From a bacterium (GTDB lineage: Bacteria > Actinomycetota > Acidimicrobiia > Spongiisociales > ZC4RG35): 64,000 bases of DNA. Made by a program: the position numbers and the translations under genes. Under the pieces are notes generated by a model, which saw only the letters and a program-made list of their open reading frames with translations, had not been told where the DNA came from and did not search any database. Shown in pieces: positions 9,011-26,148 of the stretch. The stretch is from NCBI GenBank assembly GCA_028819345.1, contig JAPPLW010000004.1:3530-67529 (forward strand), read 5' to 3'. The number at the start of each line of letters is the position of its first letter. Positions within the stretch are counted from its first letter, which is position 1.

Positions 9011-11275
9011 CTACGGCAGTCCGATGCTGGGATCGATGAACTCGTTGGTGACGATGTCGGTGGCCGTCACGTTCGGGTCCCAGGTCTCCAGTCCCTGCGG
9101 GCCGTAGATGTCGGCCAGAAGGGCGATCACCTCGTTGACCCGATCCAGGTCGAAGTCGCCGAGGGTGTCGTTGGGACCGTTCCCGATCAGGCCCAACTCG
9201 AGCTGGGCGTCGTGGGAGAACTGGGCCACTCCGGGACTGTATGTCCAGAAGCTCTCCAGCGCGGCCACGATCTCGACGATCTGGGCGTTGGTGGCGGCCG
9301 GGTCGGCGGCGTAGTCCACCTGGGCCTGTTGCACTAGGGGCACGAACAGCTCCCAGCACTCGCGGTACTCCTCGACGATGTCGGGCTTGGTGGCCAACAA
9401 CTGCGCGTACATCTCCAAGCCGGAGTCGTGGATCAGCATGAAGTCCACCGGCTTGCCCCAGTCCTCGAACTCGTACTGGTACTGGAAGGGTTCAGCCGAA
9501 GCGAATCCCTGCTGTACGAGGTTGCCCTCGGCGATGAACCGGGCGGGCGACCCGTCGTAGGAAGCGTCGATCTGGTCTTCGGTGACCCAGCCCCTACCCA
9601 ACAGGAAGTCGATGTAGGTGGCGCCCTCGAAATATAGGAGGGTCCCGTCGTTCGCTCTGAGCTGATCGCCCAAGTCCTCGAAACTCTCCAAACTGTATAC
9701 CTCGGGATCCCACATCACGATCTGGGGGTTCTTGTCGCGGGGGGCGACGATTCCCAGGGTGGGCTGGGAGCCATAGAGTCTCACCTGCTCATCGGTGTTG
9801 GTGTACGCCAGGTGGATCGACGGGTCCTGGTAGAGGAGCGAGATGTCGTTCTGGAAGCCGATGTATGGGCCGCCGGCCCGGACTTCCAGCATCACGCCGG
9901 TGTCGCCGATCTCGTTGGTGTAGGTCCCGTTAGTGGAGTCGATCACGCCTCCAGGACCGGCCAGGTGGTACAACTCGGAGTGCTCGGCCTCGGGGAACCA
10001 GTCGGTCTGGACCACGATCGTGGCGGGGCACACATCAGCCAGGGAAGCCATGGCCATGTCGTCCATGTCCATCGAGGGCAGTCCGATGCTCGGGTCGATG
10101 AACTCGTTGGTGACGATGTCGGTGGCTGTGACGTTCGGATCCCAGGTCTCCAGTCCCTGCGGACCGTAGATGTCGGCCAGCAGGGCGATGACCTCGTTGA
10201 CCCGATCAAGGTCGAAGTCGCCGAGGGTGTCGTTGGGGCCGTTCCCGATCAGGCCCAACTCGAGTTGGGCGTCATGGGAGAACTGCGCCACTCCCGGGCT
10301 GTAGGTCCAGAAGCTCTCCAGCGCGGCCACGATCTCGACGATCTGTGCGTTGGTGGCGGCCGGGTCGGCGGCGTAGTCCACTTGAGCCTGCTGCACCAGG
10401 GGCACGAACAGTTCCCAGCACTCGCGGTGTTCCTCGATGATGTCGGGCTTGGTGGCCAGCAGCTGCGCGTACATCTCCAAGCCGGAGTCGTGGATCAGCA
10501 TGATCTCGACCGGCTTGCCCCAGTCCTGGAACTCGTTCTGGTACATGTACGGCTCGGCAGAGGCGAATCCCTGCTGTACCAGGTTGCCCTCGGCGATGAA
10601 CCGGGCGGGAGACCCGTCGTATGAGGCGTCGACCTGGTCTTCGGACACCCAACCCTTGCCCAGCAGGTAATCGATGTAGGTGGCTCCCTCGAAATAGAGG
10701 AGGGTCGCCCCCGACGCGCCGATGTCGGCGAAGCTGTCGAAGGAGTACACGGCCGGGTCCCACATCACCATCTGGGGGTTCTTCTCGCGAGGAGCGACGA
10801 TGCCCAGAGTGGGTTGGGAAGCGGAGAGTCTCACCTGCTCATCGGTGTTGGTGTACGCCAGGTGGATCGACGAATCCTGGTAGAGGAGCGAGATGTCGTT
10901 CTGGAAGCCGATGTAGGGGCCGCCGGCCCGGACTTCCAGCATCACGCCCGTGTTACCGATCTCGTTGGTGTAGGTCCCGTTGGTGGAGTCGATCACGCCG
11001 CCCGGACCGGCCAGGTGGTACAACTCCGAGTGCTCGGCCTCGGGGAACCAGTCGGTCTGGACCACGATCGTGGCGGGGCACACATCAGCCAGGGCCACGT
11101 CCGGCATTGCTGCGGTGGTCTCGGTGGGTGCTGCCGTGGTGGCCGGCGCGGCGGTGGTGGCCGGCGCGGCGGTGGTCTCGGCGACTTCCTCGTCACCGTC
11201 TCCGCAGGCCGCTACGACCAGGGCCAGCACAGCCAAGGCGGCCAGCCACCTCGGCACCTTGCGATGGTTCTTCAT
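9011..11275 (-). CDS. lipoprotein: tandem double NMT1/THI5 (ThiY/SsuA-like) ABC substrate-binding protein
   Basis: ORF 9011..11377. ATG 11275 gives MKNHRKVPRWLAALAVLALVVAACGDG (lipobox LVVAAC). Two consecutive ~340-aa near-identical binding-protein modules follow. Downstream of the permease and ATPase genes of the same family. Confidence 0.85.
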   Translation of the reverse strand: MKNHRKVPRWLAALAVLALVVAACGDGDEEVAETTAAPATTAAPATTAAPTETTAAMPDVALADVCPATIVVQTDWFPEAEHSELYHLAGPGGVIDSTNGTYTNEIGNTGVMLEVRAGGPYIGFQNDISLLYQDSSIHLAYTNTDEQVRLSASQPTLGIVAPREKNPQMVMWDPAVYSFDSFADIGASGATLLYFEGATYIDYLLGKGWVSEDQVDASYDGSPARFIAEGNLVQQGFASAEPYMYQNEFQDWGKPVEIMLIHDSGLEMYAQLLATKPDIIEEHRECWELFVPLVQQAQVDYAADPAATNAQIVEIVAALESFWTYSPGVAQFSHDAQLELGLIGNGPNDTLGDFDLDRVNEVIALLADIYGPQGLETWDPNVTATDIVTNEFIDPSIGLPSMDMDDMAMASLADVCPATIVVQTDWFPEAEHSELYHLAGPGGVIDSTNGTYTNEIGDTGVMLEVRAGGPYIGFQNDISLLYQDPSIHLAYTNTDEQVRLYGSQPTLGIVAPRDKNPQIVMWDPEVYSLESFEDLGDQLRANDGTLLYFEGATYIDFLLGRGWVTEDQIDASYDGSPARFIAEGNLVQQGFASAEPFQYQYEFEDWGKPVDFMLIHDSGLEMYAQLLATKPDIVEEYRECWELFVPLVQQAQVDYAADPAATNAQIVEIVAALESFWTYSPGVAQFSHDAQLELGLIGNGPNDTLGDFDLDRVNEVIALLADIYGPQGLETWDPNVTATDIVTNEFIDPSIGLP
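9014..11092 (-). repeat. intragenic tandem duplication: two ~1.02 kb units (9014..10042 and 10076..11092) joined by a 33-nt linker
   Basis: DNA at 9015.. and 10077.. aligns by eye (offset 1062 nt at the 3' ends, 1050 nt at the 5' ends, so a 12-nt indel). The two protein halves start LADVCPATIVVQTDWFPEAEHSELYHLAGPGG and end NEFIDPSIGLP. Confidence 0.9.
11138..11173 (-). repeat. 18-nt tandem repeat (x2, plus a degenerate third copy) encoding the PATTAA linker after the lipobox
   Basis: ggtggccggcgcggcggt occurs twice in a row on the + strand. Translation on the minus strand is TTAAPATTAAPATTAAPTETTAA. Confidence 0.6.
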
Positions 11276-11351
11276 GTTGAATCTCCTTTCGTTCGAACCC
11301 TTGAGGTCTTGTCGTCTGAATGCGTCATTTAAGATTGGTCGACAGTGGCTT

Positions 11352-12158
11352 TCAGGTGGTTTCGTGCCATTTTCCAACTACCAGCCTACCCAGGAAACCG
11401 AATCCCCAGAAAACCAGAATGCCCAGCAGAGAGGAGAAGACCAGAGCGGTGAAAAGCTGTTCGGTGAGCAGCCGGGCCCGGTAGAGGTCGAGCAATCTTC
11501 CCAAACCGGGGATCCCCTTGCGGAAGAAGAACTCGCCGACGATGGCGCCGATTACCGAGAGACCTGCTGAAATACGGAACCCGGCGAAAATGGCGGGGAG
11601 GGCATTGGGAAACTGGAGCTTCACCAGGCGGGTCAGCCGGCTTGACCGGTGCAAAGTGAAGAGGTCATGGAAGGAGGCGGGCACCGACTGGAGACCGAAG
11701 AGGGTGTTGGTGATGATCGGGAAAATGGAGATGATCACGCACACCACCACCCGGCTGGTGAACCCGAACCCGAGCCACAGACCCACCAGGGGAACGATGG
11801 CCAGGATGGGCACGGTCTGGATGATCACCGCGTAGGGGTAGAAGGAGGTCTCCACCCACTTGGCCTGGCTCATCATGATGGCCGAAGTCATTCCCAGCAC
11901 TATGGCGATCACCAGGCCGGTCATGGAGACCGCCACCGTCCAGAGCAGTCCCTCCAGCACTTGGAACAGGTTGTCCTGGTTGACGAAACCGACGTCTATC
12001 ACCTCGTTCGGGGTGGGCAGCAGGAACTGCCGGTCGGGATCGAGGCTCAGGCTGATGGCGTACCAGATGCCCAACACCACGAGGAACACCACGATCGGGG
12101 GTCCCAGCCGGTAAGTGGAGGAGCGGAGCCGGGAGGAGGTGTGTCGGGCGGTGCTCAT
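11352..12158 (-). CDS. ABC transporter permease (nitrate/sulfonate/taurine NitT/TauT family)
   Basis: Six hydrophobic segments and the EAA-like loop LTRLVKLQFPNALPAIFAGFRISAGLSVIGAIVGEF. Abuts the ATPase gene (stop 12159 / start 12158). Confidence 0.85.
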   Translation of the reverse strand: MSTARHTSSRLRSSTYRLGPPIVVFLVVLGIWYAISLSLDPDRQFLLPTPNEVIDVGFVNQDNLFQVLEGLLWTVAVSMTGLVIAIVLGMTSAIMMSQAKWVETSFYPYAVIIQTVPILAIVPLVGLWLGFGFTSRVVVCVIISIFPIITNTLFGLQSVPASFHDLFTLHRSSRLTRLVKLQFPNALPAIFAGFRISAGLSVIGAIVGEFFFRKGIPGLGRLLDLYRARLLTEQLFTALVFSSLLGILVFWGFGFLGRLVVGKWHETT

Positions 12159-12953
12159 CTATTCATCTCTCAGGACTTCGGAGACTTCTCCGGTCAACTC
12201 GGCGAACGCCGGGTCGAATCGAAGGTCCAGATCGCGGGGGTAGGGAAACGGGATACTGAAAGACTTGAGTATGCGCCCGGGCCGGGAGGACATCACCAGG
12301 ACGTCGGTTGACAGGAACACCGCCTCGTACAGGTTGTGGGTGATGAACACCGCCCCGAAACCGGCGTGGGCGAAAATCCGCAGCAACTCCAGGTTGAGGT
12401 ATTCCCGGGTGATCTCATCCAGGGCCCCGAACGGCTCGTCGAAGAAGAAGAGAGGAGGATCCAGGGTGAGGGACCTCGCCAGAGAAACCCTCATCTTCAT
12501 CCCGCCCGACAATGCGGCGGGGTAATGCCGGTTGAACCCGCTCAGGCCCACCAGTTCGATGGCGTCCTTGGCTCTCTTACGCCTCTCGCTCCGATCGAAA
12601 CCGCGCAGTTCGCAGAAGAGTTCCACGTTCTTCTGAACGGTCCGCCAGGGCAGGAGAGTGGCGTCCTGGAAGACGTAACCCAGGTTCCCCTCGGACCGGC
12701 GGACTTCACCGGAGCTGGCTGAGAGGAGGCCCGATCCCATTCTGAGCAATGTGGACTTACCGCAGCCGGAGGGGCCGACGACCGTCACGAACTGGCCCGG
12801 TTCCACCTTGAATGAGACACTGTCCACCGCATGGGTCCCGTCGGGGAAGGTCTTGCTGACGTTCTCGAAGGAGATCAGGGTGGAGGAAGAACCGCCGCCC
12901 CGCGTGTCTCCATGGTTCGAGGGCTGGATGTTTGAGATTTGTCGGTCCCCCAT
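12159..12953 (-). CDS. ABC transporter ATP-binding protein (NitT/TauT family)
   Basis: Walker A GPSGCGKSTLLRM, signature LSGGMKMRVSLARSL, Walker B LFFFDEPFGALD. Confidence 0.9.
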   Translation of the reverse strand: MGDRQISNIQPSNHGDTRGGGSSSTLISFENVSKTFPDGTHAVDSVSFKVEPGQFVTVVGPSGCGKSTLLRMGSGLLSASSGEVRRSEGNLGYVFQDATLLPWRTVQKNVELFCELRGFDRSERRKRAKDAIELVGLSGFNRHYPAALSGGMKMRVSLARSLTLDPPLFFFDEPFGALDEITREYLNLELLRIFAHAGFGAVFITHNLYEAVFLSTDVLVMSSRPGRILKSFSIPFPYPRDLDLRFDPAFAELTGEVSEVLRDE

Positions 12954-12965
12954 CCGTGTCTTGGA

Positions 12966-14171
12966 TTAGTTGCTTCCAGAGGCGACCACTACGCCCTCTC
13001 TCATGGTAATCCGCGCGGGGCGGATAGAAAGCGCTTCGTTGAGAGTTTTCGCTTCCACGAAGGCCAGATCGGCCCTCTCTCCCGACCTGGGAGCGGACCG
13101 GCCGTCACTGAGAGCGGAGAGGAGGAAGGCGTCGTCGTACAGGTGCCCGGCCAGCCTCGCCAGGTAGCCCACTTCCAGGGGGTCTGCGGTGGGAAAGGGA
13201 CAGAAGGTGTCGTCCACGTTGTCGACGCCCAGCCTCACATGCACCCCTTCATCGATCAGCAGGTTGATGGGCGCCAGGGCCCGGCGGGGTGAGTGGACCC
13301 GGTATTCGTGCAGGATCAGGTTGGTGCGCGGCTGGCAGTTGACGGTTATCCCCAGCCCGGCCATGCGTCGAGCGAGGGAGCGGGTCTGCTGTTCTCCCAG
13401 TGCGCTCAGGAGGCAGCAGTGGCTGAACGAGACCCGTCCCTCCAAACGTCGGCGCTCCACCTCGTCGAGGGCGAAGTCCATCAGGAGCCGGCTGGGATCC
13501 AGCGTCTCGTCTATGTGCACATCTACCTCCACGCCGGTTCTCACCGCCAGTTCCATCATCGAACTGATCGACTCGGACGGCCGGGAGTCATGATTGGGTG
13601 AGCCCCCGATCAGCTGGTACCTGCCCATGCTCAGGTCCCTGTGCAGCCTCGATGTCTCCTCCCGGTCTGTAAGGGTGTCCGCTACTGCGAAGGCAACCAA
13701 TTCGATCTCCATGACCTTCTTCATCTGCTCCCGCACTTCCCCCATCACCTCCCACCGGGGGGCGGCGATGTGTTCGGGGTGGCACCCGACATGGCCCCTG
13801 GCCCGGGTGGCGCCGTTGGTCGACAGGGTGGAGAAGAGTTTTCTGGCCCGTTCGGCGGCGGTCTCCGGTATGTAGCCCTCCGGCCTAGCCCCCGTCTCGA
13901 TGGCGTCCTCCAGGGAACGGGGTGGGCGGGGAGAGCCGACGTATGCGCGGTCGGGATGCAGGTGCGGCTCGGCGAAAGACGGCATGGCCAGGTGCGAAGG
14001 CTCCGGGACGAGCCCTCCCGGCCGGTCGGGGAAGGGTTTGATCTCGGTGATGAGGCCGCGGCGCATCGAGATGACCTGAGGTCTCGAATACTCGGATACG
14101 TTGACCGGCCCGACAGCCGCGGGCCGGTCTCCTTCAGCCAGGCGCCGGGGGTGGGTGGGCAATTCCCTCAT
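12966..14171 (-). CDS. cytosine-deaminase-like amidohydrolase (CodA / creatinine deaminase / AtzC family)
   Basis: FAEPHLHPD (HxH), VDVHIDETLDP, SFSHCC and RLGVDNVDD line up with the CodA metal/active-site motifs as I remember them. The start overlaps the upstream stop (ATGA at 14168..14171). Confidence 0.75.
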   Translation of the reverse strand: MRELPTHPRRLAEGDRPAAVGPVNVSEYSRPQVISMRRGLITEIKPFPDRPGGLVPEPSHLAMPSFAEPHLHPDRAYVGSPRPPRSLEDAIETGARPEGYIPETAAERARKLFSTLSTNGATRARGHVGCHPEHIAAPRWEVMGEVREQMKKVMEIELVAFAVADTLTDREETSRLHRDLSMGRYQLIGGSPNHDSRPSESISSMMELAVRTGVEVDVHIDETLDPSRLLMDFALDEVERRRLEGRVSFSHCCLLSALGEQQTRSLARRMAGLGITVNCQPRTNLILHEYRVHSPRRALAPINLLIDEGVHVRLGVDNVDDTFCPFPTADPLEVGYLARLAGHLYDDAFLLSALSDGRSAPRSGERADLAFVEAKTLNEALSIRPARITMREGVVVASGSN

Positions 14172-15622
14172 TGGTAGAGAACGGTGGTCAGGGGGATATC
14201 TGTTCTGCCCAGGCCGGCCCGGGTGCGGATGCCTGCGGCCCTCCTCCGGGCTTCGACGTGCAGTGCAGCCTCGTCGATGCCGATCACCCGGCCATTACGA
14301 AAGCAGGGCCGACCGTCTACCCAGGTCTCGTGCACCGAAGCCGTCGACGCCGACCAGACCAGCGCCGAGAGGGGGTCGCCGTAGGGTATCCACTCGGGGT
14401 GGTCGAGGTCCCACAACACGAAGTCGGCCTTCTTTCCCACCTCCAGCGAGCCGATCTGATCATCCATGCCCAGGGCCTTGGCCCCATCGATGGTGGCCAT
14501 ACGCAGCGCCTGGCGCGCCCCCACCAGCGAAGCATCCATGCGGGCATCCTTGAACAGACCGGCGGCGAGGTGCACCTGGCGGTGCAGGTTGAGATTGCCC
14601 GCGGCGGAGACGCCGTCGGTCCCCAGGCCCACCGTCACTTCCGCCTCCATCATCTCGGGGTACTTTCCGATCGAGGTGGCGCCTTTGGCGAGTTTCAGAG
14701 AAGTGGACGGACAGAAGGCCACCTTGGTCCGATGGGAGGAGAGAAGATCCACCTCCTCCGGCGTCACCGCCACCGCATGAGCGATCACCAGGTTGTCGCC
14801 CAAGCCTCCTGCTCGCGCCACCCTGGTGATCGGCCAGCTTCCATGGCGTCGTTGGGAGATCTCCGCTTCGGCCAGGGAGGTGGCGAGGTGGTAGGTCGTG
14901 CCCACCCCCAGTCTCGCCGCCAGTTCCCGCGCGCCCACATGAAGCTCCAGACTGCAGGGCTCCTTCCCCTCGATGTTCACCCACACCCCGAGTCGCCCCC
15001 CGGCCGACCCGTTCCAGGCGGAAACCGTCTCGGCCAGGGCTTCAAGCGCCGCCTCGGCGTCGGGAAAGAAGTGATGATCGACTATCTCGGTCGACCAGCC
15101 TCGGGGGATCTCGGTGGGTTTGACGTCGGCGGCGTGGCGGCCGGTGATACCCCGGATCCCGGTCTGTTCCACGGCGGAGGCCACCGGCGCCGGGTCGTTC
15201 TGGGCGCCCATGTCCAGAAAGCAGGTGGTCCCTCCCCGTAGCATCTCCGCGGTCCCCAGGAGCGCCCCCACCTCTTCGTCCTCGGGACTGACATGGGCGT
15301 AGAAGGGCTTCGCCCAGTGGAACACCCAGGTGCGGGTGTCGATCACATCGGGGAACACCGCCCTGGACAGCGTTTCGGAGAGGTGGACGTGGGAGTCAAC
15401 CAGTCCGGGAGTCAGTCCCAAGCGCCGACCATCCAGCCGATCCACGGGTTGGCCCCCGGCGCCCGAGTGCATCCTCTTTTCAACCTCGGCCGTGGCGCCC
15501 AAGTCCTTTATCCGATCGCCTTCTATCAGGATTGCTCCGTCGGTTATCACCCGGTCATCCCGGTCGCAGGTTATGGCGAATTCCAGGCGTTCTATAAGGA
15601 TCAATGAGGTCACGGGGATCAC
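14168..15622 (-). CDS. amidohydrolase, Atz/Trz / SsnA / MTA-SAH-deaminase-like family
   Basis: PGLVDSHVHLSE (HxH), GTTCFLDMG, TYHLATS, HAVAVTPEE and GLGTDGVSA are typical of the chlorohydrolase/aminohydrolase subgroup. Confidence 0.8.
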   Translation of the reverse strand: MIPVTSLILIERLEFAITCDRDDRVITDGAILIEGDRIKDLGATAEVEKRMHSGAGGQPVDRLDGRRLGLTPGLVDSHVHLSETLSRAVFPDVIDTRTWVFHWAKPFYAHVSPEDEEVGALLGTAEMLRGGTTCFLDMGAQNDPAPVASAVEQTGIRGITGRHAADVKPTEIPRGWSTEIVDHHFFPDAEAALEALAETVSAWNGSAGGRLGVWVNIEGKEPCSLELHVGARELAARLGVGTTYHLATSLAEAEISQRRHGSWPITRVARAGGLGDNLVIAHAVAVTPEEVDLLSSHRTKVAFCPSTSLKLAKGATSIGKYPEMMEAEVTVGLGTDGVSAAGNLNLHRQVHLAAGLFKDARMDASLVGARQALRMATIDGAKALGMDDQIGSLEVGKKADFVLWDLDHPEWIPYGDPLSALVWSASTASVHETWVDGRPCFRNGRVIGIDEAALHVEARRRAAGIRTRAGLGRTDIPLTTVLYQ

Positions 15623-15647
15623 GGCCTTTCCGAGAACTGGCCGCGTA

Positions 15648-16538
15648 CTAGGAAGGGTATGTGGCCCGATAACGCATGTACAAGTAGTCCCCCGCTTTGC
15701 GAACCGACAGGATCTTCATCCTCGGTATGTCATCGGGGAGCCAACCGGTTCCCTCCACCAGGCTGGGCCTTGGGTTGCCGGGACTCTCTCCCACCACCAG
15801 CGGCGACCGGGTGATGAAGGGCTCATGCATGATCCCGGCTTTGAGGAGGGCACCGTATAGCGTGGCGCCGCCCTCGCACAGGAGGAACTCGACACCGTAA
15901 TCTCCGGCCATTATGCGGGCGTAGCGCTCCAGGTTCACTCCGCTGCTTCCAAACTCGAGGATGTCGATCTTGCCGGCCGGCCGGACCGTGGCGCGAATTT
16001 TCCGGGCGCCGGCCCTGGTGGTGGCCACCACCACGTGGGCGTCCTCCATCGAGAACACCTTGGCCTCGGTTGGAAGGTTGCCGTCGAGGGTTATGTAGGA
16101 GATGATGGGGAGTTCCGAGCGGTTCTCGTGCCGGCGGAGGGCGGCGAAGGCATCCTTGTCTCCGGGATAGATGTCTTCGGATGTGTTGACGTGGCTGGGT
16201 TCGGCTCGGAGGGTTCCCTCGCCTATGACCACGGCGTCGGCTCGGGCGCGGAGCAAGCCCATCAGCCACACATCGTTGTCGTTGAACCCCGAGATCGGGC
16301 CGCCTCCCCGGTGGTCGGGGTGGTTGAAGGCCACTCGGCCGTCATGAGAGGTGACGAAATTGGCCGCCAGCAGGGGCAGGCCCTTGACAGGAGGCTTGAG
16401 TCGCAGGGGACCGCCGTACACCGCTGCGAGGTCAGGGTGCAGTTCCAGTCCCTCTCCGTCGGAGGCCGTTTCCTCATCGAACAACGTCTCGAACCGAAGA
16501 GCCGGTCCATGTACCGAGATGGGGGTGTCTTGTGTCAT
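15648..16538 (-). CDS. RibD C-terminal-domain (dihydrofolate-reductase-like) reductase family protein
   Basis: NFVTSHDGRVAF, DVWLMGLLRARADAVVIGEGTL and LLCEGGATLYGALLKAG resemble the pyrimidine-reductase domain of RibD. No deaminase domain is present. Confidence 0.7.
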   Translation of the reverse strand: MTQDTPISVHGPALRFETLFDEETASDGEGLELHPDLAAVYGGPLRLKPPVKGLPLLAANFVTSHDGRVAFNHPDHRGGGPISGFNDNDVWLMGLLRARADAVVIGEGTLRAEPSHVNTSEDIYPGDKDAFAALRRHENRSELPIISYITLDGNLPTEAKVFSMEDAHVVVATTRAGARKIRATVRPAGKIDILEFGSSGVNLERYARIMAGDYGVEFLLCEGGATLYGALLKAGIMHEPFITRSPLVVGESPGNPRPSLVEGTGWLPDDIPRMKILSVRKAGDYLYMRYRATYPS

Positions 16539-16654
16539 TCTTCTAGACCTGCTCCTGGTGATTGTCTACCGGGAGTGAACGATACAGGGTCCACCCAGAG
16601 GCCTGGCTGGCCGCCGGTTGTTACGATTCCATCGACCACCCGGAGGATCCCAGG

Positions 16655-17770: not shown

Positions 17771-17879
17771 GCGGCGAGGCAGCTGTCCGGCCAACTTATA
17801 AAAGAGTCTCGGGTTTACGAAAGAACTTTTGTAAAGCGGGTCAAAAGGTGTATGTCGCTTGGCTGGTGATGAGAGCCGG

Positions 17880-18476: not shown

Positions 18477-18537
18477 CAGTCGCTCCTTGTGCCTGAGTGG
18501 CCGCTGATCACTGACATGCTATTCCCCTGACGGCCGT

Positions 18538-19884: not shown

Positions 19885-20780
19885 GCCACTCCTTCTATTC
19901 GTTCGATCCTCTTGCGTATCCCGTCCCACTGCGAGGCGCCCGCCGTAACCGGCGCACGGGCGCCCAGGCCCCTGGCCCAGGAGGTTATGTGCCCCAACTC
20001 GGCGGCTCTGTCCAGGTCCACGCCTCCCGGCGGCGCCGCCAGGTCCATGACCAGGCTCCCGGAGGGCAGGGCATCCAGCACATCCTTTTCCACAACCGGG
20101 ACGGGGACCGTGGAGAGGAGCATGTCAAGGCGGTGAGCATGCTGCGGAAGCTGATCCAGGGGCACCGCTTCGGCGCCGGTCACCTCAGCCTCCGCCCGCT
20201 GGACGGGGTTGCGGGCCGCCACCAGGACCTCGGCGCCCAGGAGCACCAGGGTGCGGGTGAGGAGGGATCCGACGGTCCCCTGGCCGACCACTCCTATCGT
20301 CGAGCCGTGGATAGTGATCTCGGTCAACTCGATGATTCTCTGCAGGGCGCCCTCCACGATGGTGGGGCCGCGGCGCAGCATCAACTCCCGGTCCTGCTCG
20401 TACTCCACGATGCCCACTCCGGCCGCCTGGGCCTCCGCCCGGAGGCGGTGATCGGCGGTCCCCAGTATGAGGTGAGCACCGGCAGCCATCCTTCCCAGCA
20501 CTTCCCGGCCGATCACGATGGGTCCGGGGGCATGGGGTGCGTAGAGAGATCCGTCCTCCGCCATTCCGGGGATGGGCAGCAGACCGTAATGGGCGTCCCG
20601 CAACACCTCGTCGGGGTCTCGGCACGGCGTCACTCCGGCGATCCCCTGCGCGGGCCAGGGAAACCCGTAGGCGCGCACCGCCGCTCCGGTGATCGCGGCC
20701 TGACGGGCTATCTCCCGCTCGCGGTGGTCGCCTCCCACCACGGCGATCACCCTTTCGCTCCAGGGAACTGTCACCTCCAC
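19881..20780 (-). CDS. dipicolinate-synthase-subunit-A-like (DpaA/SpoVFA family) NAD(P)-binding dehydrogenase
   Basis: VIAVVGGDHRE..., GPTIVEGALQRIIELTEITIHGSTIGVVGQGTVGSLLTRTLVLLGAEVLVAARN, LVMDLAAPPGGVD and GLGARAPVTAG parallel the B. subtilis SpoVFA pattern as I remember it. No DpaB-type flavoprotein gene is adjacent. Confidence 0.65.
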   Translation of the reverse strand: MEVTVPWSERVIAVVGGDHREREIARQAAITGAAVRAYGFPWPAQGIAGVTPCRDPDEVLRDAHYGLLPIPGMAEDGSLYAPHAPGPIVIGREVLGRMAAGAHLILGTADHRLRAEAQAAGVGIVEYEQDRELMLRRGPTIVEGALQRIIELTEITIHGSTIGVVGQGTVGSLLTRTLVLLGAEVLVAARNPVQRAEAEVTGAEAVPLDQLPQHAHRLDMLLSTVPVPVVEKDVLDALPSGSLVMDLAAPPGGVDLDRAAELGHITSWARGLGARAPVTAGASQWDGIRKRIERIEGVA

Positions 20781-20783
20781 CTC

Positions 20784-22454
20784 TTACCAGTATTCCTCGT
20801 AGTGGACGTTTGCCTTCACCCCCTGCTGGGGAAGCGTAAACCCTCGCTCGGCCAGGAGTTCGGCTACTCCGAGCGTCTCCCCGAAGACCGGTCGGCCGTC
20901 CACCCATTCAGGCACCCCGATCATCGCCGGGTTGCCGCACATGAAAACCTGCAGGCGGGAGGGGTCGAGTTCCAATCCGGTTTCCGCGGTCAGAAGGTCA
21001 TCTCCGATGAGTTGCTGGATGCGCATCCTCAGAGCGCCATGGGCGTCCTGGCGGGTGACCAGGGGGAGGTAGCGATAGTTGGGAAAGCGTTCTTCCAGGG
21101 CCCGGTGGCGAGCCACGTATCCCAGGTCCGCGGCGTAACGGCACGACACGACCGACACCACCCGTCCCTGATGTCCCTTTCGAAACAGCTCCACCACCAT
21201 GGCGTTGTGGGGCGCCTCCCCTGTCCCGGTGGCCAGGAAGAGCACATCGGAGAAGGGATCGGTCACCGTGGAAAGGGTGTAGCGGCCGGCCATCCGGGGA
21301 CCGAGGTAAATCCGGTCCCCCTCGTGCTTGAGGGCCAGTCGCGGCGTCAGGGCCGGCAGGCGGTCGACAGTGGGAGGGACCAACACGACGTAGAACTCAA
21401 GGGACCCTTCGTATGCGGGATCGGTGAGGTACCCTCGGGCGTCGAAGATCCGGGATGAGATGGAGTAGGACCTTCTCACCAGCCGCTCCGCCCCTGCCAG
21501 GCGGTCCTCGGCCCCGTCCGCTCTCGGCTCCCAATAGCCCAGGCCGAGAGTGGCGTACTGTCCCGGCACCAGGGGCGAGTCGCGCTGGTCGGGCCGTACC
21601 CTGACTATCCACAGGTCGGGGTTTATCCGGCGGAACCAGGTGATTGTGGCGTTGTAGTAACGACTCTCCAGGTCGAAGAGGTGCCCGGCCTGGACCGTGG
21701 TGACGGACGGGGCGGCAGGCGGCAGGGAAGGAAAGTGCCGGGACCGCATTCTCTCCCAGGCTTGATCGGCAGGAACGGTGACCACTCCCTCCAGATGCTC
21801 TTCGGCGCCCTGTTGGTGGAGGAGCAGGTGAATGGGGAGAGCGCCCTTCTCCACCTCTATGCCTGAATGGTCGAGCACCTGAGAAGCCGATGAGTCGGGT
21901 TCCGAGAGGAGAACGTTGTCGAATTGGAGGTCCGGCGTTTGACGACTGTCGAAGGCCACCATCGGGTAGCTATGCAGGTCATAGACCCGGGTGGGCCGGG
22001 CCCTCCAGAAGACCGTGATCTGGCGTTGGGCCTCCAGGCGCCGGACCATTCGTCTGGCCAGAAAGGACATCTTTCCGAACTCGGTGTGATGAATGCACAG
22101 GACCACCTTGGCTCCCTGCGCCAGAAGTTCGAAGGTCCACTCCACCGGTTCGTCGCCTTCGCCTATCACAACCACGTCTCCGGGAGGCCCCTCTATCTGG
22201 TCGGGATGCGTGTGGGCCCGGTGAGCGACCGAGGGATCTACCGAGATTCGGGGAGAACGCTGCTTGAGCGGGGGATAGGACAATCCCAACACCACTGACC
22301 GAGCGGCGACCGGGCCGGTGGAGGTCTCCACTACCAGCAGGGGTCCCGGAGCCTGCCGAACCCTGCGGGCGACAGTGTCGTAGCGCACCGTTACCCCCGG
22401 CGCCTCGAAGCGACTGGGGTAAACCTGGGGATCGGAAGGGGAGAGCACCAGCAC
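20784..22454 (-). CDS. fusion: degenerate two-dinucleotide-binding (thioredoxin-reductase-like) N-domain + plant-type ferredoxin-NADP reductase (FNR/Fpr) C-domain
   Basis: C-terminal half has RRSYSISS (FAD RxYS), VLFLATGTGEAPHNAMV, VFMCGNPAMI and the terminal HYEEYW. N-half has VVVIGEGDEPVEW. The reading frame stays open upstream to ~22616 and encodes WEIVVIGDRLAGLSLA, but no ATG/GTG/TTG occurs there, so the true 5' end is uncertain. Confidence 0.7.
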   Translation of the reverse strand: MLVLSPSDPQVYPSRFEAPGVTVRYDTVARRVRQAPGPLLVVETSTGPVAARSVVLGLSYPPLKQRSPRISVDPSVAHRAHTHPDQIEGPPGDVVVIGEGDEPVEWTFELLAQGAKVVLCIHHTEFGKMSFLARRMVRRLEAQRQITVFWRARPTRVYDLHSYPMVAFDSRQTPDLQFDNVLLSEPDSSASQVLDHSGIEVEKGALPIHLLLHQQGAEEHLEGVVTVPADQAWERMRSRHFPSLPPAAPSVTTVQAGHLFDLESRYYNATITWFRRINPDLWIVRVRPDQRDSPLVPGQYATLGLGYWEPRADGAEDRLAGAERLVRRSYSISSRIFDARGYLTDPAYEGSLEFYVVLVPPTVDRLPALTPRLALKHEGDRIYLGPRMAGRYTLSTVTDPFSDVLFLATGTGEAPHNAMVVELFRKGHQGRVVSVVSCRYAADLGYVARHRALEERFPNYRYLPLVTRQDAHGALRMRIQQLIGDDLLTAETGLELDPSRLQVFMCGNPAMIGVPEWVDGRPVFGETLGVAELLAERGFTLPQQGVKANVHYEEYW

Positions 22455-22655
22455 CCGTTCCAGGCCGCCGGCGGCGGCTTCCGACGCCAGGGACAGGCCG
22501 GCCAGCCGGTCACCTATGACTACGATCTCCCAGACGAAGGAGGGCTGCGGGGTGTCGGGCGTGTCTGTTGGGACGATGCTGTAAAGGCTATCGGGATCCG
22601 CTGTAAGGTGTTCGGCCTAAATTTAGGTGCGAAGGCCCGAAAAAGGAGCAGTGTC

Positions 22656-22850
22656 GTGCCGGTCGTCACCGTGGAGATGTGGGAAGGAAGGACCGTCGAG
22701 CAGAAGCGTCGGCTGGTCAAGGCCATTACCGAGGCAATGGTGGAACACGCCGATGCCCGACCCGACGCCCTGCATGTGATCATCCACGACGTTCCACGGG
22801 AGAGTTGGGGATTGGCCGGGGTTCTCGGTCCGGACCGCACCGACGTATGA
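22656..22850 (+). CDS. 4-oxalocrotonate tautomerase family protein
   Basis: ORF 22608..22850. GTG 22656 lies 7 nt after AAGGAG and gives (M)PVVTVEMWEGRTVEQKRRLVKAITEAMVEH, the Pro-1 tautomerase signature at ~64 aa. Confidence 0.75.
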   Translation: MPVVTVEMWEGRTVEQKRRLVKAITEAMVEHADARPDALHVIIHDVPRESWGLAGVLGPDRTDV

Positions 22851-23842
22851 GCGTTGCGGTCGGCCTGGACGCGCTTGCCCCCGATTCGGCGGCGCTCCTG
22901 GTCATCGACATGCAGAACGCCTTCTGCCACCCGGAGGGCACCCTGGGAGAGTCAGGGGTGGACGTGGGTCCGGTCCAAGAGGTCTATGAACCCATAGGCG
23001 GCCTGGTCGAGGCGTTCAGAGGATCCGGGATCCCGGTCATCTGGACTGTCCAAGAACATCTTCAACCGGACCGGAGCCGCCAACAGAAACGCCTGCCATC
23101 CCACACCGAGCGTCGTTCGAGGGTGGCGGCCCTGGCCGGCACCTGGGACGCGGAGATCGTTGAGGAATTGGCCGGATGGGCGGATGAACCGACCATGGTG
23201 GTGCGCAAGCACCGGTTCGGGGCGTTTTACGAGACGCGTCTTCAAACGCTGCTGGGGATGCTGGGGGTGCGAACCCTGTTCATCGCGGGGGTTACTCTCA
23301 ACGCCTGCGTCGAGACCACCATACGGGAGGCCTACCTGCGGGACTATGACGTGGTGGCGGTCACCGACTGCATCGCCGGAGTGCGGCCGCAATGGGAGCC
23401 CTCGGCCCTGGAGGTCTGGGCACAGTACCTGGCTCACCTGGCTACCTCCCGGGAGGTGACCGACTGGCTGGCCGAGAGCCGCCGGCCCGTGGTCAGGGGG
23501 ATCCGGCACGTGTTGTTGGAGACCACCGACCTGGACGCCGCGGAGCGCTTCTACGTGGACCTCCTGGGATTCAAGGTGAGGAACCGCACTCCGTTCCGCG
23601 ACGGCAGAAGATTCATCAGCACCGAGGAGGGCCTGGGACTGACCGAGGGGGGCGCAGGCAAGGGTGGACAGGTGGATCACATCGCCTTCGAGGTTGACGG
23701 CGTTGCGGAGTGGGAGCGGGTGGTAGCCGACGCCGGGCACCCGATCGTCCGTCCGCTCGGCCCCGGGCCCTACGGCCTAACCGTGTACGTGGCAGACCCT
23801 GACGGCAACGAGATCGAACTCTACGAGACGGAGGGTCCGTGA
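22847..23842 (+). CDS. fusion: isochorismatase-family cysteine hydrolase (RutB / N-carbamoylsarcosine-amidase-like) + VOC (glyoxalase/dioxygenase-fold) domain
   Basis: ORF 22679..23842; ATG 22847 overlaps the tautomerase stop (ATGA). LLVIDMQNAF (Asp), VVRKHRFGAF (Lys) and IAGVTLNACVETT (Cys) form the triad. The C-terminal IRHVLLETTDLDAAERFYVDLLGF...VDHIAFEV...DPDGNEIELYE is VOC fold. Confidence 0.8.
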   Translation: MSVAVGLDALAPDSAALLVIDMQNAFCHPEGTLGESGVDVGPVQEVYEPIGGLVEAFRGSGIPVIWTVQEHLQPDRSRQQKRLPSHTERRSRVAALAGTWDAEIVEELAGWADEPTMVVRKHRFGAFYETRLQTLLGMLGVRTLFIAGVTLNACVETTIREAYLRDYDVVAVTDCIAGVRPQWEPSALEVWAQYLAHLATSREVTDWLAESRRPVVRGIRHVLLETTDLDAAERFYVDLLGFKVRNRTPFRDGRRFISTEEGLGLTEGGAGKGGQVDHIAFEVDGVAEWERVVADAGHPIVRPLGPGPYGLTVYVADPDGNEIELYETEGP

Positions 23843-25029
23843 AGATAACCGCTGCCACCGTGTACATAGTGGCGCTGCCCACTCGACGCCACCACTCGTG
23901 GGCCTCCAAGATGACCGCTCCGATCGGTCGTCATGCCATCCTCCGGCTGCGGACCGACGAGGGACTTGAGGGATGGGGGGAGGCGCCCGCCGGCATCACC
24001 TGGGGCGGGTCGGCGATGCGGTACTACGGCGAGTCGCCCGAGACGGTGCGGATCGTGGCCCTCGACTACCTGCTTCCGGCCGTGGGGGGCTGCGACCCGC
24101 GTGAGATCGCGGTGGTCCACGCCCGGATGGACAGAGCCGTGAAGGGCCACCCCTATGCAAAGGCGATGATCGACATGGCCAGCCACGACCTGGCAGGACG
24201 GGCCATGGGCGTGGGAGTCTCAACCCTCCTCGGGGGATCTCACCGTCGAGGGATAGAGTTGGCCCACTCATTGGGGATAATGCCGATTGAACGCTGCCTG
24301 GAGGAGGCGGAGCAGGCGGTTTCGGAGGGCGCCCTCACCATCAAGTGCAAGACCGGCCTGGACCCCTTCCGGGATGTGGAGTTGGTGCGTCGCCTGCGGG
24401 AGTTGGTGGGCCCCGGGATCAAGATCAGGGTTGACGGCAACGAGGGGTATTCCCATGTCGCCGAGGCGGTGAGGGTAACCCGCGCCCAGGAGGAATATGA
24501 CATCATGCTGTGCGAGCAACCGGTGGCCGGCGCTGAGGGCCTGGCGGCGGTGGCCCAAAGGATCGAGGCGCCGGTGATGGCCGATGAGTCGGCTTGGACC
24601 GTCGAGGACATCTGGGAGTTGGCCGACTTGGGCGCTGCCGACTACATCTCGTGCTACGTCACCAAGCCGGGAGGGCTGTTCCGCGCCCGCCAGCAGGCCG
24701 AGACCGCCCGTCGCCTGGGGATGCTGTGCGACATAGGAGGCTCGATTGAGACCGGGATCGGCAACGCCGCAAACCTGGCTCTGGGAGCGGCGGTGGAGAA
24801 CGCCTCCCTTCCCAGCGTTTGTCCGGTATCCGGCCCGGAGGGCAGTGCCCGCCCGGAGATAGCGGGCATCTACTACACCGACGACTTGATCTCAGCCCCC
24901 TTCCGTTTCGAGGACGGTCGGGTGTCGGTCCCCGAAGGTCCGGGGCTGGGGGTGGAAGTCGAAGTGGCCAAGGTGGAGAAGTACTCGGTGGCGGAGGCGG
25001 TCAGCCTCGACCTGGGTGAGGATGGGTGA
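23839..25029 (+). CDS. mandelate racemase / muconate lactonizing enzyme (enolase superfamily) protein
   Basis: LRLRTDEGLEGWGEAP, KCKTG, IRVDGNEGY, LCEQPV, ADES and CDIGGSIETGIG match the MR/MLE capping and barrel motifs. The GTG start overlaps the upstream stop (GTGA). Confidence 0.85.
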   Translation: MKITAATVYIVALPTRRHHSWASKMTAPIGRHAILRLRTDEGLEGWGEAPAGITWGGSAMRYYGESPETVRIVALDYLLPAVGGCDPREIAVVHARMDRAVKGHPYAKAMIDMASHDLAGRAMGVGVSTLLGGSHRRGIELAHSLGIMPIERCLEEAEQAVSEGALTIKCKTGLDPFRDVELVRRLRELVGPGIKIRVDGNEGYSHVAEAVRVTRAQEEYDIMLCEQPVAGAEGLAAVAQRIEAPVMADESAWTVEDIWELADLGAADYISCYVTKPGGLFRARQQAETARRLGMLCDIGGSIETGIGNAANLALGAAVENASLPSVCPVSGPEGSARPEIAGIYYTDDLISAPFRFEDGRVSVPEGPGLGVEVEVAKVEKYSVAEAVSLDLGEDG

Positions 25030-25038
25030 GAGAGGTCC

Positions 25039-26148
25039 ATGACCCGGGTAGTCGTTATGGGGGGCGGAGCGGGAGGCATGGCGGCGACAGTCGACCTGAC
25101 CCTGCGGGGATTCGATGTGGTCTGGTGGCGACGCACCGTCCCGAAAGAGCCGCCCACCGGGTTCCGGCTTGCCTACCGGGGCGTGTGCGGGGACGGTGCG
25201 ATGCCCGTGACATGCACCGACGATCTGGCCCCGAGCCTTGCCGGAGCGGGAGGCGTGCTCGTGTGCCTGCCATCCACCGCCCATCGGCACATAGCCCGAC
25301 TCCTGGCCGAGGCCGGTTGTACGGCGCCGGTGGTGCTGGCCCCCGGCCACCTGGGCGGCGCCCTGGAGGTGGCCAAGGTGTGGCGCGACGCCGGGATGGA
25401 AGGCGTGCCTCCTCTGGCGGAGTGTTCCACGCTTCCCTACACGGTGCGGGCCTTCCCGGTGGACGCTGACGCAGGTGGGGACGGCCGGGCAGCGCAATGG
25501 GGAGTGAACATCACGGGTGCCGCCGCCCGGGTGCCGGTTGCCTGCCTCCCCGGGGGCGAGGCGGCTCTCCGGTTGGCCGGGCGGCTTTACCCCGGAGCCG
25601 TCACCCTGCCCGATGTCCTGGCGGTGGGACTGGCGGAGGTCAATATGGTTCTCCACCCTCCCGGAGCGGTTCTGGGAGCGGCCTGGGTAGAGGCCACGGG
25701 CGGGGACTTCCGCTTCTACGTGGACGGTATGACCCGGGGAGTGGCCTCGGTGATGGGGCGCCTTGACTCTGAGCGCCTGGCGGTGGCCGAGGCCTTCGGA
25801 TACCGCCTGGGGTCTCTGATGGAGGAGATGTCGGCGATCGGCACGGTGGAACCGGACGCCGACCTGGGGGACATACAGAGCGCCATTTCCAGTGGGAGCG
25901 CCAACGCCCGGATAATGGCGCCTGACTCTCTGGGCCACCGGTACTACACCGAGGACTTCGGGTATGGACTGTTGCCTCTGGTGGAGTTGGCCAAGGTGGC
26001 GGGGGTGGCTACCCCGGTGGCTCAAGCGCTGCTCAATCTGGCCTCAGCGGCAGGCTTGGAAGAGGCGATAGCCGGAGGCCGCACCCTGGAGCGGCTGGAC
26101 CTGGAGGGTCTCTCGACCGACGAGATCATCGCCCGGATCCGGCCATAG
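25039..26148 (+). CDS. NAD/NADP octopine/nopaline (opine) dehydrogenase family protein
   Basis: N-terminal VVVMGGGAGGMAATVDL Rossmann segment and C-terminal YYTEDFGYGLLPLVELAKVAGVATPVAQALLNLAS are typical of the Octopine_DH helical domain. Confidence 0.75.
   Translation: MTRVVVMGGGAGGMAATVDLTLRGFDVVWWRRTVPKEPPTGFRLAYRGVCGDGAMPVTCTDDLAPSLAGAGGVLVCLPSTAHRHIARLLAEAGCTAPVVLAPGHLGGALEVAKVWRDAGMEGVPPLAECSTLPYTVRAFPVDADAGGDGRAAQWGVNITGAAARVPVACLPGGEAALRLAGRLYPGAVTLPDVLAVGLAEVNMVLHPPGAVLGAAWVEATGGDFRFYVDGMTRGVASVMGRLDSERLAVAEAFGYRLGSLMEEMSAIGTVEPDADLGDIQSAISSGSANARIMAPDSLGHRYYTEDFGYGLLPLVELAKVAGVATPVAQALLNLASAAGLEEAIAGGRTLERLDLEGLSTDEIIARIRP

Follow-up and report, generated by a model that had tools for sequence, protein, structure and literature searches.

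A conserved, regulator-less gene cluster of Acidimicrobiia predicted to scavenge nitrogen from an aminopyrimidine-like heterocycle or a cyclic amidine or ureide

Among experimentally shown pathways, the reductive degradation of uric acid in E. coli, in which the reductase YgfK is coupled to SsnA and is followed by the hydantoinase HyuA, ureido cleavage and a lyase (PMC12507026), appears closest in logic to the gene block described here, and the Pyd pathway appears next closest. The block consists of 15 consecutive genes (positions 9011 to 26148) in a 64,000-nucleotide stretch of contig JAPPLW010000004.1 (assembly GCA_028819345.1, positions 3,530 to 67,529 of the forward strand) from a member of Acidimicrobiia; this whole stretch is referred to below as the window. 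An earlier note, made from the sequence alone, described the block as a regulator-less catabolic island for creatinine- or cyclic-ureide-type compounds. We interpret it as a vertically inherited catabolic and nitrogen-scavenging supra-operon, one of a widespread, uncharacterized cluster family, for an aminopyrimidine-like heterocycle or a cyclic amidine or ureide, an interpretation to which we give slightly better than even chances.

The public gene call used for comparison (ENA ERZ23495468, scaffold_558 of 98,995 bp, the same contig as the window), our own list of open reading frames (ORFs) and codon-position GC content are concordant, and with the gene spacing they confirm the arrangement proposed in the earlier note, namely, three operons and two single genes. 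A minus-strand operon of six genes, running from 16538 down to 9011, encodes a RibD_C-type protein, a TRZ/ATZ-type amidohydrolase (TRZ-like), a CodA-like amidohydrolase and the ATPase, permease and substrate-binding protein (SBP) of an ATP-binding cassette (ABC) importer. The gene for an M24 hydrolase with a Creatinase_N domain stands singly on the plus strand. In a second minus-strand unit, genes for a flavoprotein-FNR fusion (FNR-fusion), a DpaA-like dehydrogenase and a hydantoinase-like cyclic amidohydrolase (Hyd) are followed, past a 61-nt gap, by a Flavodoxin_2/NQO-type gene. A plus-strand operon encodes a 4-oxalocrotonate tautomerase (4-OT) family protein, an isochorismatase-VOC fusion (Iso-VOC), an MR/MLE enzyme (MLE) and an Octopine_DH-family dehydrogenase (ODH). 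Genes within units overlap by 4 nt or are at most 27 nt apart, except for the 61 nt before NQO and 76 nt before the SBP gene. Protein families were assigned with Pfam, and all of those named in the earlier note match; its inventory nevertheless left out the TRZ-like, MR/MLE and 64-amino-acid tautomerase genes and missed the VOC fusion and an internal duplication of the SBP.

The uric-acid clusters of E. coli and C. difficile encode XdhD-YgfM, YgfK or UacX, SsnA, HyuA, YgeW with YqeA or UacY, YgeY and YgeX (PMC12507026). The route proposed for the block would share with them dearomatization by NAD(P)H combined with a TRZ/ATZ-superfamily amidohydrolase, opening by a hydantoinase-family enzyme, stepwise ureido removal, and release of a 2-oxoacid and NH3; organization as a gene cluster and the use of differing reductases across phyla are also common to both. 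In contrast, the block contains no orthologue of XdhD, YgfK, SsnA, YgeW, YgeY or YgeX and no molybdenum hydroxylase. Its reductases would be the DpaA-like, Octopine_DH-like, FNR-fusion, NQO and RibD_C proteins, ureido cleavage would fall to an isochorismatase-type Cys hydrolase, the 4-OT, VOC, MR/MLE and M24 proteins are additional, and the hosts are presumably aerobic. With the Pyd pathway (PydA, the dihydropyrimidinase PydB and PydC), the block would share the order of reduction, cyclic-amidohydrolase opening and decarbamoylation, and Hyd belongs to the PydB/D-hydantoinase/allantoinase family. The block differs in having neither a PydA (DHO_dh/Fer4) nor a PydC (CN_hydrolase or M20) domain, and in carrying two extra cog0402 amidohydrolases and a six-gene lower module. 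Since no defining protein of the uric-acid or Pyd pathway has an orthologue here, the block may work like these pathways but is not a member of either.

Two further systems share individual enzymes. By sequence, the isochorismatase domain (Iso) of Iso-VOC is closest to RutB of the Rut system, BiuH and TrtA (74, 62 to 64 and 61 bits, respectively), which are isochorismatase-like Cys hydrolases of terminal ureido amides, and residues fitting the D-K-C triad can be made out in it by eye. Unlike in the Rut system, Iso is joined to a VOC domain in one protein, its gene invariably comes after that for 4-OT, and RutA and RutC to RutG genes are missing. The creatinine pathway of C. glutamicum ATCC 14067, Arthrobacter and Pseudomonas (PMC8864220) draws on enzyme classes that the block also has, namely, the CodA family, hydantoin-ring hydrolases, isochorismatase-family amidases and M24 proteins with a Creatinase_N domain and a degenerate metal site; however, the N-methylhydantoinase known from this pathway, ATP-dependent HyuA/HyuB, is missing from the block, as are creatininase and sarcosine oxidase.

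A cluster family in Acidimicrobiia, other actinobacteria and rhizobia

When one genome per species was searched with the FNR-fusion protein as seed, 80 loci were recovered. In nine of them, all from metagenome-assembled genomes of Acidimicrobiia (L003 to L011), the complete run of genes between ODH and the CodA-like gene, both included, is present together with the ABC genes and in unchanged order, with amino acid identities of 64 to 98%. The cluster proteins have diverged in step with the PurL proteins of these genomes. The synteny comparison suggested in the earlier note recovered the whole block in all relatives found; because the scan was seeded with a block gene, relatives lacking the block could not be detected. 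The other 71 loci contain an FNR-fusion homologue of 41 to 50% identity and no other cluster gene, and the FNR-fusion homologues of around 45% identity in other Acidimicrobiia were for this reason rejected as pathway markers.

Beyond this lineage, DpaA-like homologues with 60 to 67% identity occur in Gaiellaceae, Thermoleophilaceae and other Actinomycetota. The main unit of these actinobacterial versions encodes the tautomerase, Iso-VOC, M24, MR/MLE, Octopine_DH-like and DpaA-like proteins and an amidohydrolase of ∼450 amino acids, and an adjacent unit encodes amidohydrolases of ∼390 and ∼480 amino acids; one Gaiellaceae contig has RibD_C and the ATPase-permease-SBP set as well. Identities to the window proteins are 73 to 75% for Hyd, 66 to 68% for the TRZ-like protein, 66 to 70% for MLE, 69 to 78% for 4-OT, 60 to 66% for DpaA, 59 to 64% for Iso-VOC, 50 to 53% for ODH, 46% for RibD_C, 45 to 46% for the SBP and 36 to 38% for the CodA-like protein. 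Hyd is the best-conserved protein of the cluster and the TRZ-like protein the second best, while the FNR-fusion and NQO genes are accessories confined to the window's lineage.

A tblastn search of plasmids located the gene set on megaplasmids of Aminobacter (10 records), Shinella (3 records) and Phyllobacterium (1 record), with identities to the window of 68 to 69% for Hyd, 62 to 63% for the TRZ-like protein and 52% for M24. The three plasmid regions inspected encode MLE, M24 and TRZ-like proteins; ODH, “DpsA,” Hyd, a 227-amino-acid protein with no Pfam match, the tautomerase and Iso-VOC; and, further, a “cytosine deaminase,” GntR, RidA, a CobW-like GTPase, an ABC SBP-permease-ATPase set and PntAB. 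The Aminobacter version adjoins genes for a DadA-like oxidase and malate synthase G, of which Phyllobacterium carries pseudogenized copies. GntR, RidA and CobW genes are all absent from the window's lineage, although a GntR/FCD regulator gene accompanies every homologous cluster seen outside it. Judged by its gene content, the window holds a lineage-specific, regulator-less variant of a widespread and uncharacterized cluster family.

Scanning metagenomes with an aligned set of DpaA-like proteins as the seed added 80 further loci. Where there is sufficient room, the gene immediately upstream of DpaA is ODH in 34 of 48 loci, and the gene immediately downstream encodes 4-OT (33 loci) or Hyd (11 loci) in 44 of 47. 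A minimal variant recurs in this set and comprises ODH-DpaA-4-OT, a free-standing VOC protein, M24, MLE, GntR, a TctC receptor and a split thiamine pyrophosphate (TPP)-dependent decarboxylase. Adjacent ODH-like and DpaA-like genes, followed by Hyd or 4-OT and accompanied by Iso-VOC, MR/MLE and M24, constitute the arrangement typical of the family and are present in the window, in its nine relatives, in the loci L083, L085, L086 and L088 to L090, and in many of the 80 metagenome loci. The clusters can be read as two modules, a “lower” redox and isomerase module (ODH, DpaA, 4-OT, VOC, M24 and MLE) and an “upper” hydrolytic module (Hyd, Iso, TRZ-like and CodA-like), which the Iso-VOC fusion physically ties together in full versions. 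The suggestion of the earlier note that the operons form one functional unit has held up well, as they are strongly co-conserved across two phyla.

The predicted route and its enzymes

We predict the following route. (i) The ThiY/NMT1-type ABC importer would take in an amino-substituted pyrimidine-like heterocycle or a cyclic amidine or ureide. (ii) The CodA-like and TRZ-like amidohydrolases would strip exocyclic amino groups or open an amidine. (iii) The always-adjacent ODH-like and DpaA-like pair would reduce the ring with NAD(P)H, assisted by the FNR-fusion, NQO and RibD_C proteins in the window's lineage and possibly by PntAB or other oxidoreductases in other versions. (iv) Hyd would open the reduced ring. 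(v) The RutB/BiuH-like Cys hydrolase would release the ureido or amide group as NH3 and CO2. (vi) The lower module (4-OT, VOC, MR/MLE and an M24 protein with a degenerate metal site) would turn the leftover amino or imino acid into a 2-oxoacid. The TPP enzymes of soil versions and the malate synthase and DadA-like oxidase of Aminobacter hint at a 2-oxoacid, glycine or glyoxylate as possible end products.

Several lines of evidence favor this route. First, the gene content supports a catabolic, nitrogen-scavenging system for a cyclic amide, amidine or ureide, as the earlier note proposed: the dedicated importer that it recognized is present as ATPase, permease and binding protein, several other versions likewise have an importer linked to them, and GntR/FCD regulators occur everywhere outside the lineage. 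A biosynthetic function was set aside given the importer, the FCD-type regulators and the many hydrolases. Second, the structural matches of the SBP, the TRZ-like and CodA-like neighbors of tandem SBPs in other genomes, and the fold of RibD_C point to a heterocycle-type substrate. Third, the active sites look intact, in the CodA-like and TRZ-like proteins by alignment and in Hyd, Iso and 4-OT by eye.

Hyd (448 amino acids; 18538 to 19884, minus strand) belongs to the hydantoinase/dihydropyrimidinase/allantoinase family of cyclic amidohydrolases and shows, by eye and without a reference alignment, motifs fitting HxH, the carbamylated-Lys position, His, His and Asp. Among PDB entries it matches the ATP-independent L-hydantoinase 1GKR best (209 bits), and D-hydantoinases and allantoinases follow closely; it scores 285.7 bits with the dihydropyrimidinase model TIGR02033 (cutoff, 393), and allantoinase models score equally well. 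Iso-VOC (22847 to 23842, plus strand) joins an isochorismatase-like Cys hydrolase to a single VOC/glyoxalase domain. Residues fitting the triad D21-K121-C154 were found in Iso by eye, and its scores with the models for RutB (TIGR03614; 90.9 versus 378 bits) and BiuH (80 versus 370 bits) lie below the equivalog cutoffs. Iso matches N-carbamoylsarcosine amidase (CSHase, 1NBA) with 30 bits (E value, 2.6e-6).

The CodA/AtzC-like amidohydrolase (401 amino acids; 12966 to 14171, minus strand) retains in alignment HxH, His, Glu, His and Asp, among them its metal ligands and the Glu and His of catalysis. It has no counterpart of Gln156, which binds cytosine in E. coli CodA, D314 is replaced by Asn, and the NCBIfam scores are far under the cutoffs. 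The TRZ-like protein (484 amino acids; 14168 to 15622, minus strand), of the cog0402 type, has intact metal ligands, but every orthologue has HLAT in place of the canonical deaminase HxxE motif; in the HMMER alignment, Thr248 falls opposite the catalytic Glu of methylthioadenosine/S-adenosylhomocysteine (MTA/SAH) deaminase. A Glu four residues beyond Thr248 could act as a substitute, or the protein may be a ring-opening hydrolase rather than a deaminase. It scores 108 and 98 bits with the SsnA models NF005540 and TIGR03314 (cutoffs, 444 and 455, respectively) and also gives a weak HutI-composite-domain match.

The M24 “pita-bread” hydrolase (16655 to 17770, plus strand) matches prolidases with 100 to 124 bits and the creatinases 1CHM, 1KP0 and 7YTO with 52 to 62 bits. 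At the five metal-ligand positions of E. coli methionine aminopeptidase, it has E, G, H, E and K rather than D, D, H, E and E, a pattern that the window's lineage shares with the alphaproteobacteria and with one soil actinobacterial version. Bazan and colleagues (1994) reportedly described creatinase as the one M24 enzyme without a metal site, and the resemblance of the degenerate site to creatinase is suggestive rather than proof.

The 4-OT-family protein (64 amino acids; 22656 to 22850, plus strand) has Pro1, as read by eye. It is followed downstream of Iso-VOC by the MR/MLE enzyme (23839 to 25029, plus strand), which belongs to the muconate-cycloisomerase subgroup of the enolase superfamily and has cis-3-hydroxy-L-proline dehydratase as its second-best NCBIfam match. 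ODH (25039 to 26148, plus strand) matches the Arthrobacter opine dehydrogenase 1BG6 with 126 bits. The public gene call starts it at 25057, but orthologues and a Rossmann β1-GxGxxG motif (MTRVVVMGGGAGG) indicate that the ATG at 25039 is most likely the true start. The DpaA/DpsA-like NAD(P) dehydrogenase (297 amino acids; 19881 to 20774, minus strand) matches dipicolinate synthase subunit A with 110 bits. RibD_C proteins have a pyrimidine-reductase fold, and the RibD_C-type (pyrimidine reductase/DHFR-like) protein of the block is encoded at 15648 to 16538 (minus strand); the NQO-type NAD(P)H oxidoreductase is encoded at 17880 to 18476 (minus strand).

The FNR-fusion (20784 to 22580, minus strand) consists of a Pyr_redox_3/2-type flavoprotein domain in its N-terminal half and an FNR-like NAD_binding_1 domain. 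The first canonical start codon, at 22454, would give a protein of 556 amino acids, but conserved coding sequence runs on for ∼50 codons upstream, to ∼22580 to 22612. This upstream stretch holds a β-α-β dinucleotide-binding motif (VVIGDRLAGLS), homologues are called at 579 to 610 amino acids, and no in-frame ATG, GTG or TTG occurs from the stretch back to a stop codon inside the palindrome described below. Either a noncanonical start codon or an N-terminal truncation in the sub-lineage would account for this.

Other observations weigh against the predicted route. No block protein attains a curated NCBIfam equivalog cutoff, so every assignment and every proposed step stands at the family level only, and the whole mechanism is accordingly a family-level prediction. 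Our literature searches found no paper on this gene combination, which leaves the proposed substrate without an anchor. The CodA-like protein, to which an early step is assigned, is the least conserved cluster member (23 to 38% identity between lineages), and the label “deaminase” may be wrong for a TRZ-like protein that lacks the canonical HxxE Glu. In some cluster versions the degenerate M24 is exchanged for a canonical metallo-M24: a paralogue with D, D, H, E and E occupies the in-operon position in two other actinobacterial versions (L083, 6633 to 7763; L086, 6577 to 7704). The fold match of the SBP is to a broad family (TM scores of 0.67 to 0.79 at identities of only 13 to 18%). Finally, the minimal variant has no amidohydrolase at all; because the lower module can occur in this way, the cluster could be two often co-located pathways rather than one.

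With these points in mind, we suggest more tentatively, at somewhat less than even chances, that the clusters encode an undescribed route for a common aminopyrimidine-like or cyclic-amidine metabolite, with a DpaA-like/opine dehydrogenase-like reductase pair, a metal-free M24 amidine hydrolase, 4-OT and Iso-VOC, and an importer with a concertedly evolving tandem SBP. This route would be common to presumed sponge- or coral-associated Acidimicrobiia, soil Gaiellales and rhizobia, and the same tentative estimate covers the proposal that its enzyme families have not yet been assigned to heterocycle breakdown. If correct, it would represent a widely distributed multi-enzyme nitrogen-salvage pathway in uncultured Acidimicrobiia, soil actinobacteria and cultured rhizobia, and would provide the first functions for DpaA-like proteins outside spore formers, for the M24 subfamily with a degenerate metal site and for Iso-VOC fusions. 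Since Aminobacter (for example, A. aminovorans KCTC 2477, with the genes AA2016_RS28065 to RS28155 on plasmid pAA01), Shinella (for example, strain HZN7, plasmid pShin-03) and Phyllobacterium are cultured carriers, the pathway is directly testable.

Competing pathways

The block could be an aerobic counterpart of the reductive and hydrolytic purine pathways (for guanine, xanthine, 8-oxopurines or pterins), with deamination, ring reduction, stepwise cleavage by the TRZ-like protein and Hyd, ureido removal and processing of an amino or diamino acid. The order of enzymes matches that of E. coli XdhD/YgfK/SsnA/HyuA/YgeW-YgeY/YgeX (PMC12507026), the TRZ-like protein, of the cog0402 type, lacks the deaminase Glu and weakly matches the HutI composite domain and SsnA models, and the presence of five C-N hydrolases points to a substrate very rich in nitrogen. 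The final steps would be in keeping with RidA of the alphaproteobacterial versions and with the glyoxylate-handling gene of Aminobacter. We nevertheless consider this alternative unlikely: orthologues of XdhD, YgfK, YgeX and SsnA are lacking, with the SsnA model scores far short of their cutoffs; the SBP fold is nearest to binders of monocyclic aminopyrimidines; and DpaA, ODH, MLE and M24 have no counterpart in known purine routes.

The existence of the minimal variant, with its TctC carboxylate receptor and TPP decarboxylases and no amidohydrolases, raises a second alternative, namely, that the compound broken down by the ODH-DpaA-4-OT-VOC-M24-MLE module is a cyclic imino acid or a secondary amine of the opine type (e.g., a hydroxy- or amidino-substituted cyclic amino acid), which the amidohydrolases would only supply from lactam or ureide precursors. 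In that case the central reactions would be dehydration or epimerization, tautomerization, and imine reduction or oxidation rather than heterocycle hydrolysis. The match of ODH to opine dehydrogenase, the MLE match to cis-3-hydroxy-L-proline dehydratase and the proximity of M24 to prolidases are consistent with such a substrate, as is the only known DpaA substrate, a cyclic imine dicarboxylate. However, four or five amidohydrolases and the pyrimidine-type SBP are strictly co-conserved with the module in all full-length versions, and the Iso hydrolase is physically fused to the module's VOC domain, which makes this alternative quite unlikely.

Catabolism of creatinine and creatine, which colored the earlier note, would have the CodA-like protein deaminate creatinine to N-methylhydantoin, the ATP-independent Hyd open the ring, Iso act as N-carbamoylsarcosine amidase and M24 act as creatinase. 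The enzyme classes fit these three hydrolytic steps plus creatinase; M24 lacks two of five metal ligands, like the non-metallo creatinase mentioned above; and the DadA-like oxidase and malate synthase of the Aminobacter version fit a glycine or glyoxylate end product. Sponge symbionts have been reported to use host creatine and creatinine, through classical genes (PMC6742649). A creatininase-family (PF02633) gene near a related metagenomic cluster, a single distant one, points the same way. Our literature searches for creatinine genes in sponge Acidimicrobiia returned nothing. Against this assignment, Hydantoinase_A/B (HyuA/HyuB), creatininase and sarcosine oxidase or dehydrogenase are all missing from the window ORFs scanned, so that the statement that every hydrolytic class of creatinine breakdown is represented was too strong, and Iso (30 bits to CSHase versus 74 bits to RutB) and M24 (52 to 62 bits versus 100 to 124 bits) are closer to other enzymes. 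The CodA-like protein, which would catalyze the first step, is the least conserved member, and the SBP, as modeled, resembles pyrimidine binders. At least eight conserved genes would be left without a role: none is evident for TRZ-like, RibD_C, DpaA, ODH, MLE, 4-OT, VOC, FNR-fusion or NQO, several of which are among the best conserved and most tightly linked. With no equivalog cutoff reached in addition, we regard creatinine as an improbable substrate and retain the prediction of an aminopyrimidine-like heterocycle or a cyclic amidine or ureide.

Genomic context, promoter region and importer

The term “island,” in the sense of an acquired block, is not supported. Synonymous codon usage of the 15 block genes correlates closely with that of the other 33 window genes (r = 0.989) and GC content at third codon positions (GC3) is 0.819 in the block versus 0.814 in the rest of the window, so the deviation in GC content and codon usage that the earlier note proposed to measure is absent; composition-based island detection (GC profile and codon usage) was negative, and in tetranucleotide usage the SBP gene, with its internal repeat, alone stands out. 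No tRNA gene occurs in the window, direct repeats do not flank the block, and a domain scan of ∼50 larger window ORFs, which passed over a few stretches, detected no integrase or transposase. Within the same scope, no DNA-binding or transcription factor domain was detected, in agreement with the earlier note on both mobility and regulator genes.

The housekeeping flanks described in that note apply to the right side, where PurL and then GATase follow. The left flank, with a luciferase-like monooxygenase (LLM), a GCS2 ligase and an OCD/mu-crystallin gene, is not classical housekeeping, although it is syntenic: both relatives checked have the same LLM-GCS2, OCD, adenine glycosylase and molybdopterin oxidoreductase genes. 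The remaining window genes belong to core metabolism (RF1, Rho, threonine synthase, homoserine dehydrogenase, formyltetrahydrofolate synthetase [FTHFS] and complex I). PurL lies between GATase and ODH in the window (26148 to 28591) and in five relatives, while GATase directly abuts ODH in L006 and L008 (5252 to 6320), which places PurL at a rearrangement-prone junction; in some relatives this junction also encodes an additional sugar-type ABC transporter or an HpcH-like aldolase. A second variable site lies between NQO and M24. It spans just ∼100 bp in the window, L006 and L008, and in the seven other relatives (L003 to L005, L007 and L009 to L011) it holds low-GC (55 to 59%) inserts encoding an AAA_16/STAND-like ATPase (391 to 393 amino acids), a 355-amino-acid ORF with no Pfam match or both (e.g., L005, 14726 to 15901; L004, 15776 to 16843).

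The variable right junction and the low-GC accessory genes between NQO and M24 are what might be expected of a recently acquired island or a chance juxtaposition of three unrelated operons. Set against the native codon usage and GC3, the lack of tRNA genes, flanking repeats and mobility genes, the identical internal order and conserved left flank in relatives, the parallel divergence of the cluster proteins and PurL, and the co-conservation of the gene set across phyla, they leave this explanation with hardly any credibility. Judged by composition and gene order, the block is an old, vertically inherited part of the lineage's chromosome.

The LLM gene of the left flank (8135 to 8914) is short, encoding 259 amino acids, and abuts the importer operon; a CofC-like F420 biosynthesis gene lies at 31371 to 31985. 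Luciferase-family putative F420 enzymes replace the ring reductase of the reductive uric-acid pathway in Chloroflexota (PMC12507026). The LLM gene, the only luciferase-like gene noted here, lies outside the clusters seen in full in other lineages, although a Bac_luciferase gene is present ∼8 kb away in one distant locus.

The description of the block as regulator-less holds for the window's lineage and not for the system as a whole, given the GntR/FCD genes that always accompany homologous clusters elsewhere. Gene content indicates that this regulator was lost in the presumed sponge- or coral-associated Acidimicrobiia lineage, and the cluster would then be either constitutive or controlled in trans; loss confined to a presumed host-associated lineage would be a case of regulatory streamlining. 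No riboswitch appears to stand in for the missing regulator, as an Rfam scan of positions 6000 to 30000 gave nothing at an E value of ≤1. A scan for sigma-70 promoters gave no matches in the high-GC DNA of the window.

The divergent region between the FNR-fusion and tautomerase genes measures 201 bp and contains a perfect 12-bp palindrome, CCTAAATTTAGG (22616 to 22627). The palindrome is kept as TCTMAATTTAGR in most of the nine relatives, having diverged in L007 and L008, and a conserved CCGATAGCCTTYACAGCATC box lies nearby. In a search for shared operators, CCTAAATTTAGG occurred only once in the window and other matches were at chance level. The palindrome is a candidate operator for a regulator encoded elsewhere or, alternatively, a candidate −10 region. 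At the other end of the block, a GC-rich hairpin with a 17-bp stem followed by a T-rich tract (8955 to 8992, minus strand) is the likely terminator of the importer operon and is probably bidirectional, serving the LLM gene as well.

The importer comprises an ABC ATPase (12159 to 12953), a BPD_transp_1 permease of the NitT/TauT type (11352 to 12158) and a lipoprotein SBP of 754 amino acids (9011 to 11275), all encoded on the minus strand. The SBP is a tandem duplicate of two ThiY/NMT1-like domains of ∼340 amino acids that are 92% identical (90.5% at the DNA level). Its Pfam NMT1 match is borderline (22.3 bits), and because one domain found no sequence match in the PDB even at an E value of ≤1, a structure model was used. 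The AlphaFold model of the domain (pLDDT, 78.7; pTM, 0.82) best matches the thiamin-binding protein 4NMY and the formylaminopyrimidine (FAMP)-binding ThiY 3IX1 (TM scores of 0.67 to 0.79), followed by Thi5. The domain has a class II SBP fold in common with these proteins, and substituted aminopyrimidines are the closest ligands among solved structures. In other Acidimicrobiia, genes for homologous tandem SBPs either adjoin TRZ-like and CN_hydrolase genes or have a CodA-like gene in the neighborhood.

The tandem architecture occurs in >100 Acidimicrobiia protein clusters of 690 to 850 amino acids (P0241 to P0342), many from multi-megabase contigs, and an assembly artifact or a recent one-off duplication was rejected on this basis. 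Single-domain homologues of 383 to 431 amino acids exist as well, and a 1,007-amino-acid homologue (P0310) may be a three-copy form. Within most tandem SBPs the halves are 96 to 100% identical, whereas orthologues across lineages share just 40 to 52%; in two loci, the DNA identity of the halves reaches 98.8% (L093, 10001 to 12313) and 99.4% (L094, 10001 to 12250). This pattern bears the signature of concerted evolution of a ∼1-kb intragenic repeat, presumably by gene conversion or unequal crossing-over, and would make the protein a natural example of concerted evolution within a transporter gene. The halves have diverged to 92% identity in the window and 90% in its nearest relative, and orthologous halves are 98.2% and 93.8% identical. 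As orthologous halves are now closer than paralogous ones, homogenization seems to have stopped in the window's sub-lineage. GlnPQ-type importers also carry two binding domains per polypeptide; in contrast to their diverged tandem domains, those of the window SBP are near-identical repeats, fused to each other and not to the permease. Beside the tandem SBP gene of one of these other Acidimicrobiia genomes, a further gene (L093, 12632 to 15052) encodes an 806-amino-acid protein in which a Peripla_BP_6 domain is joined to a C-terminal domain homologous to the ThiY-like SBP.

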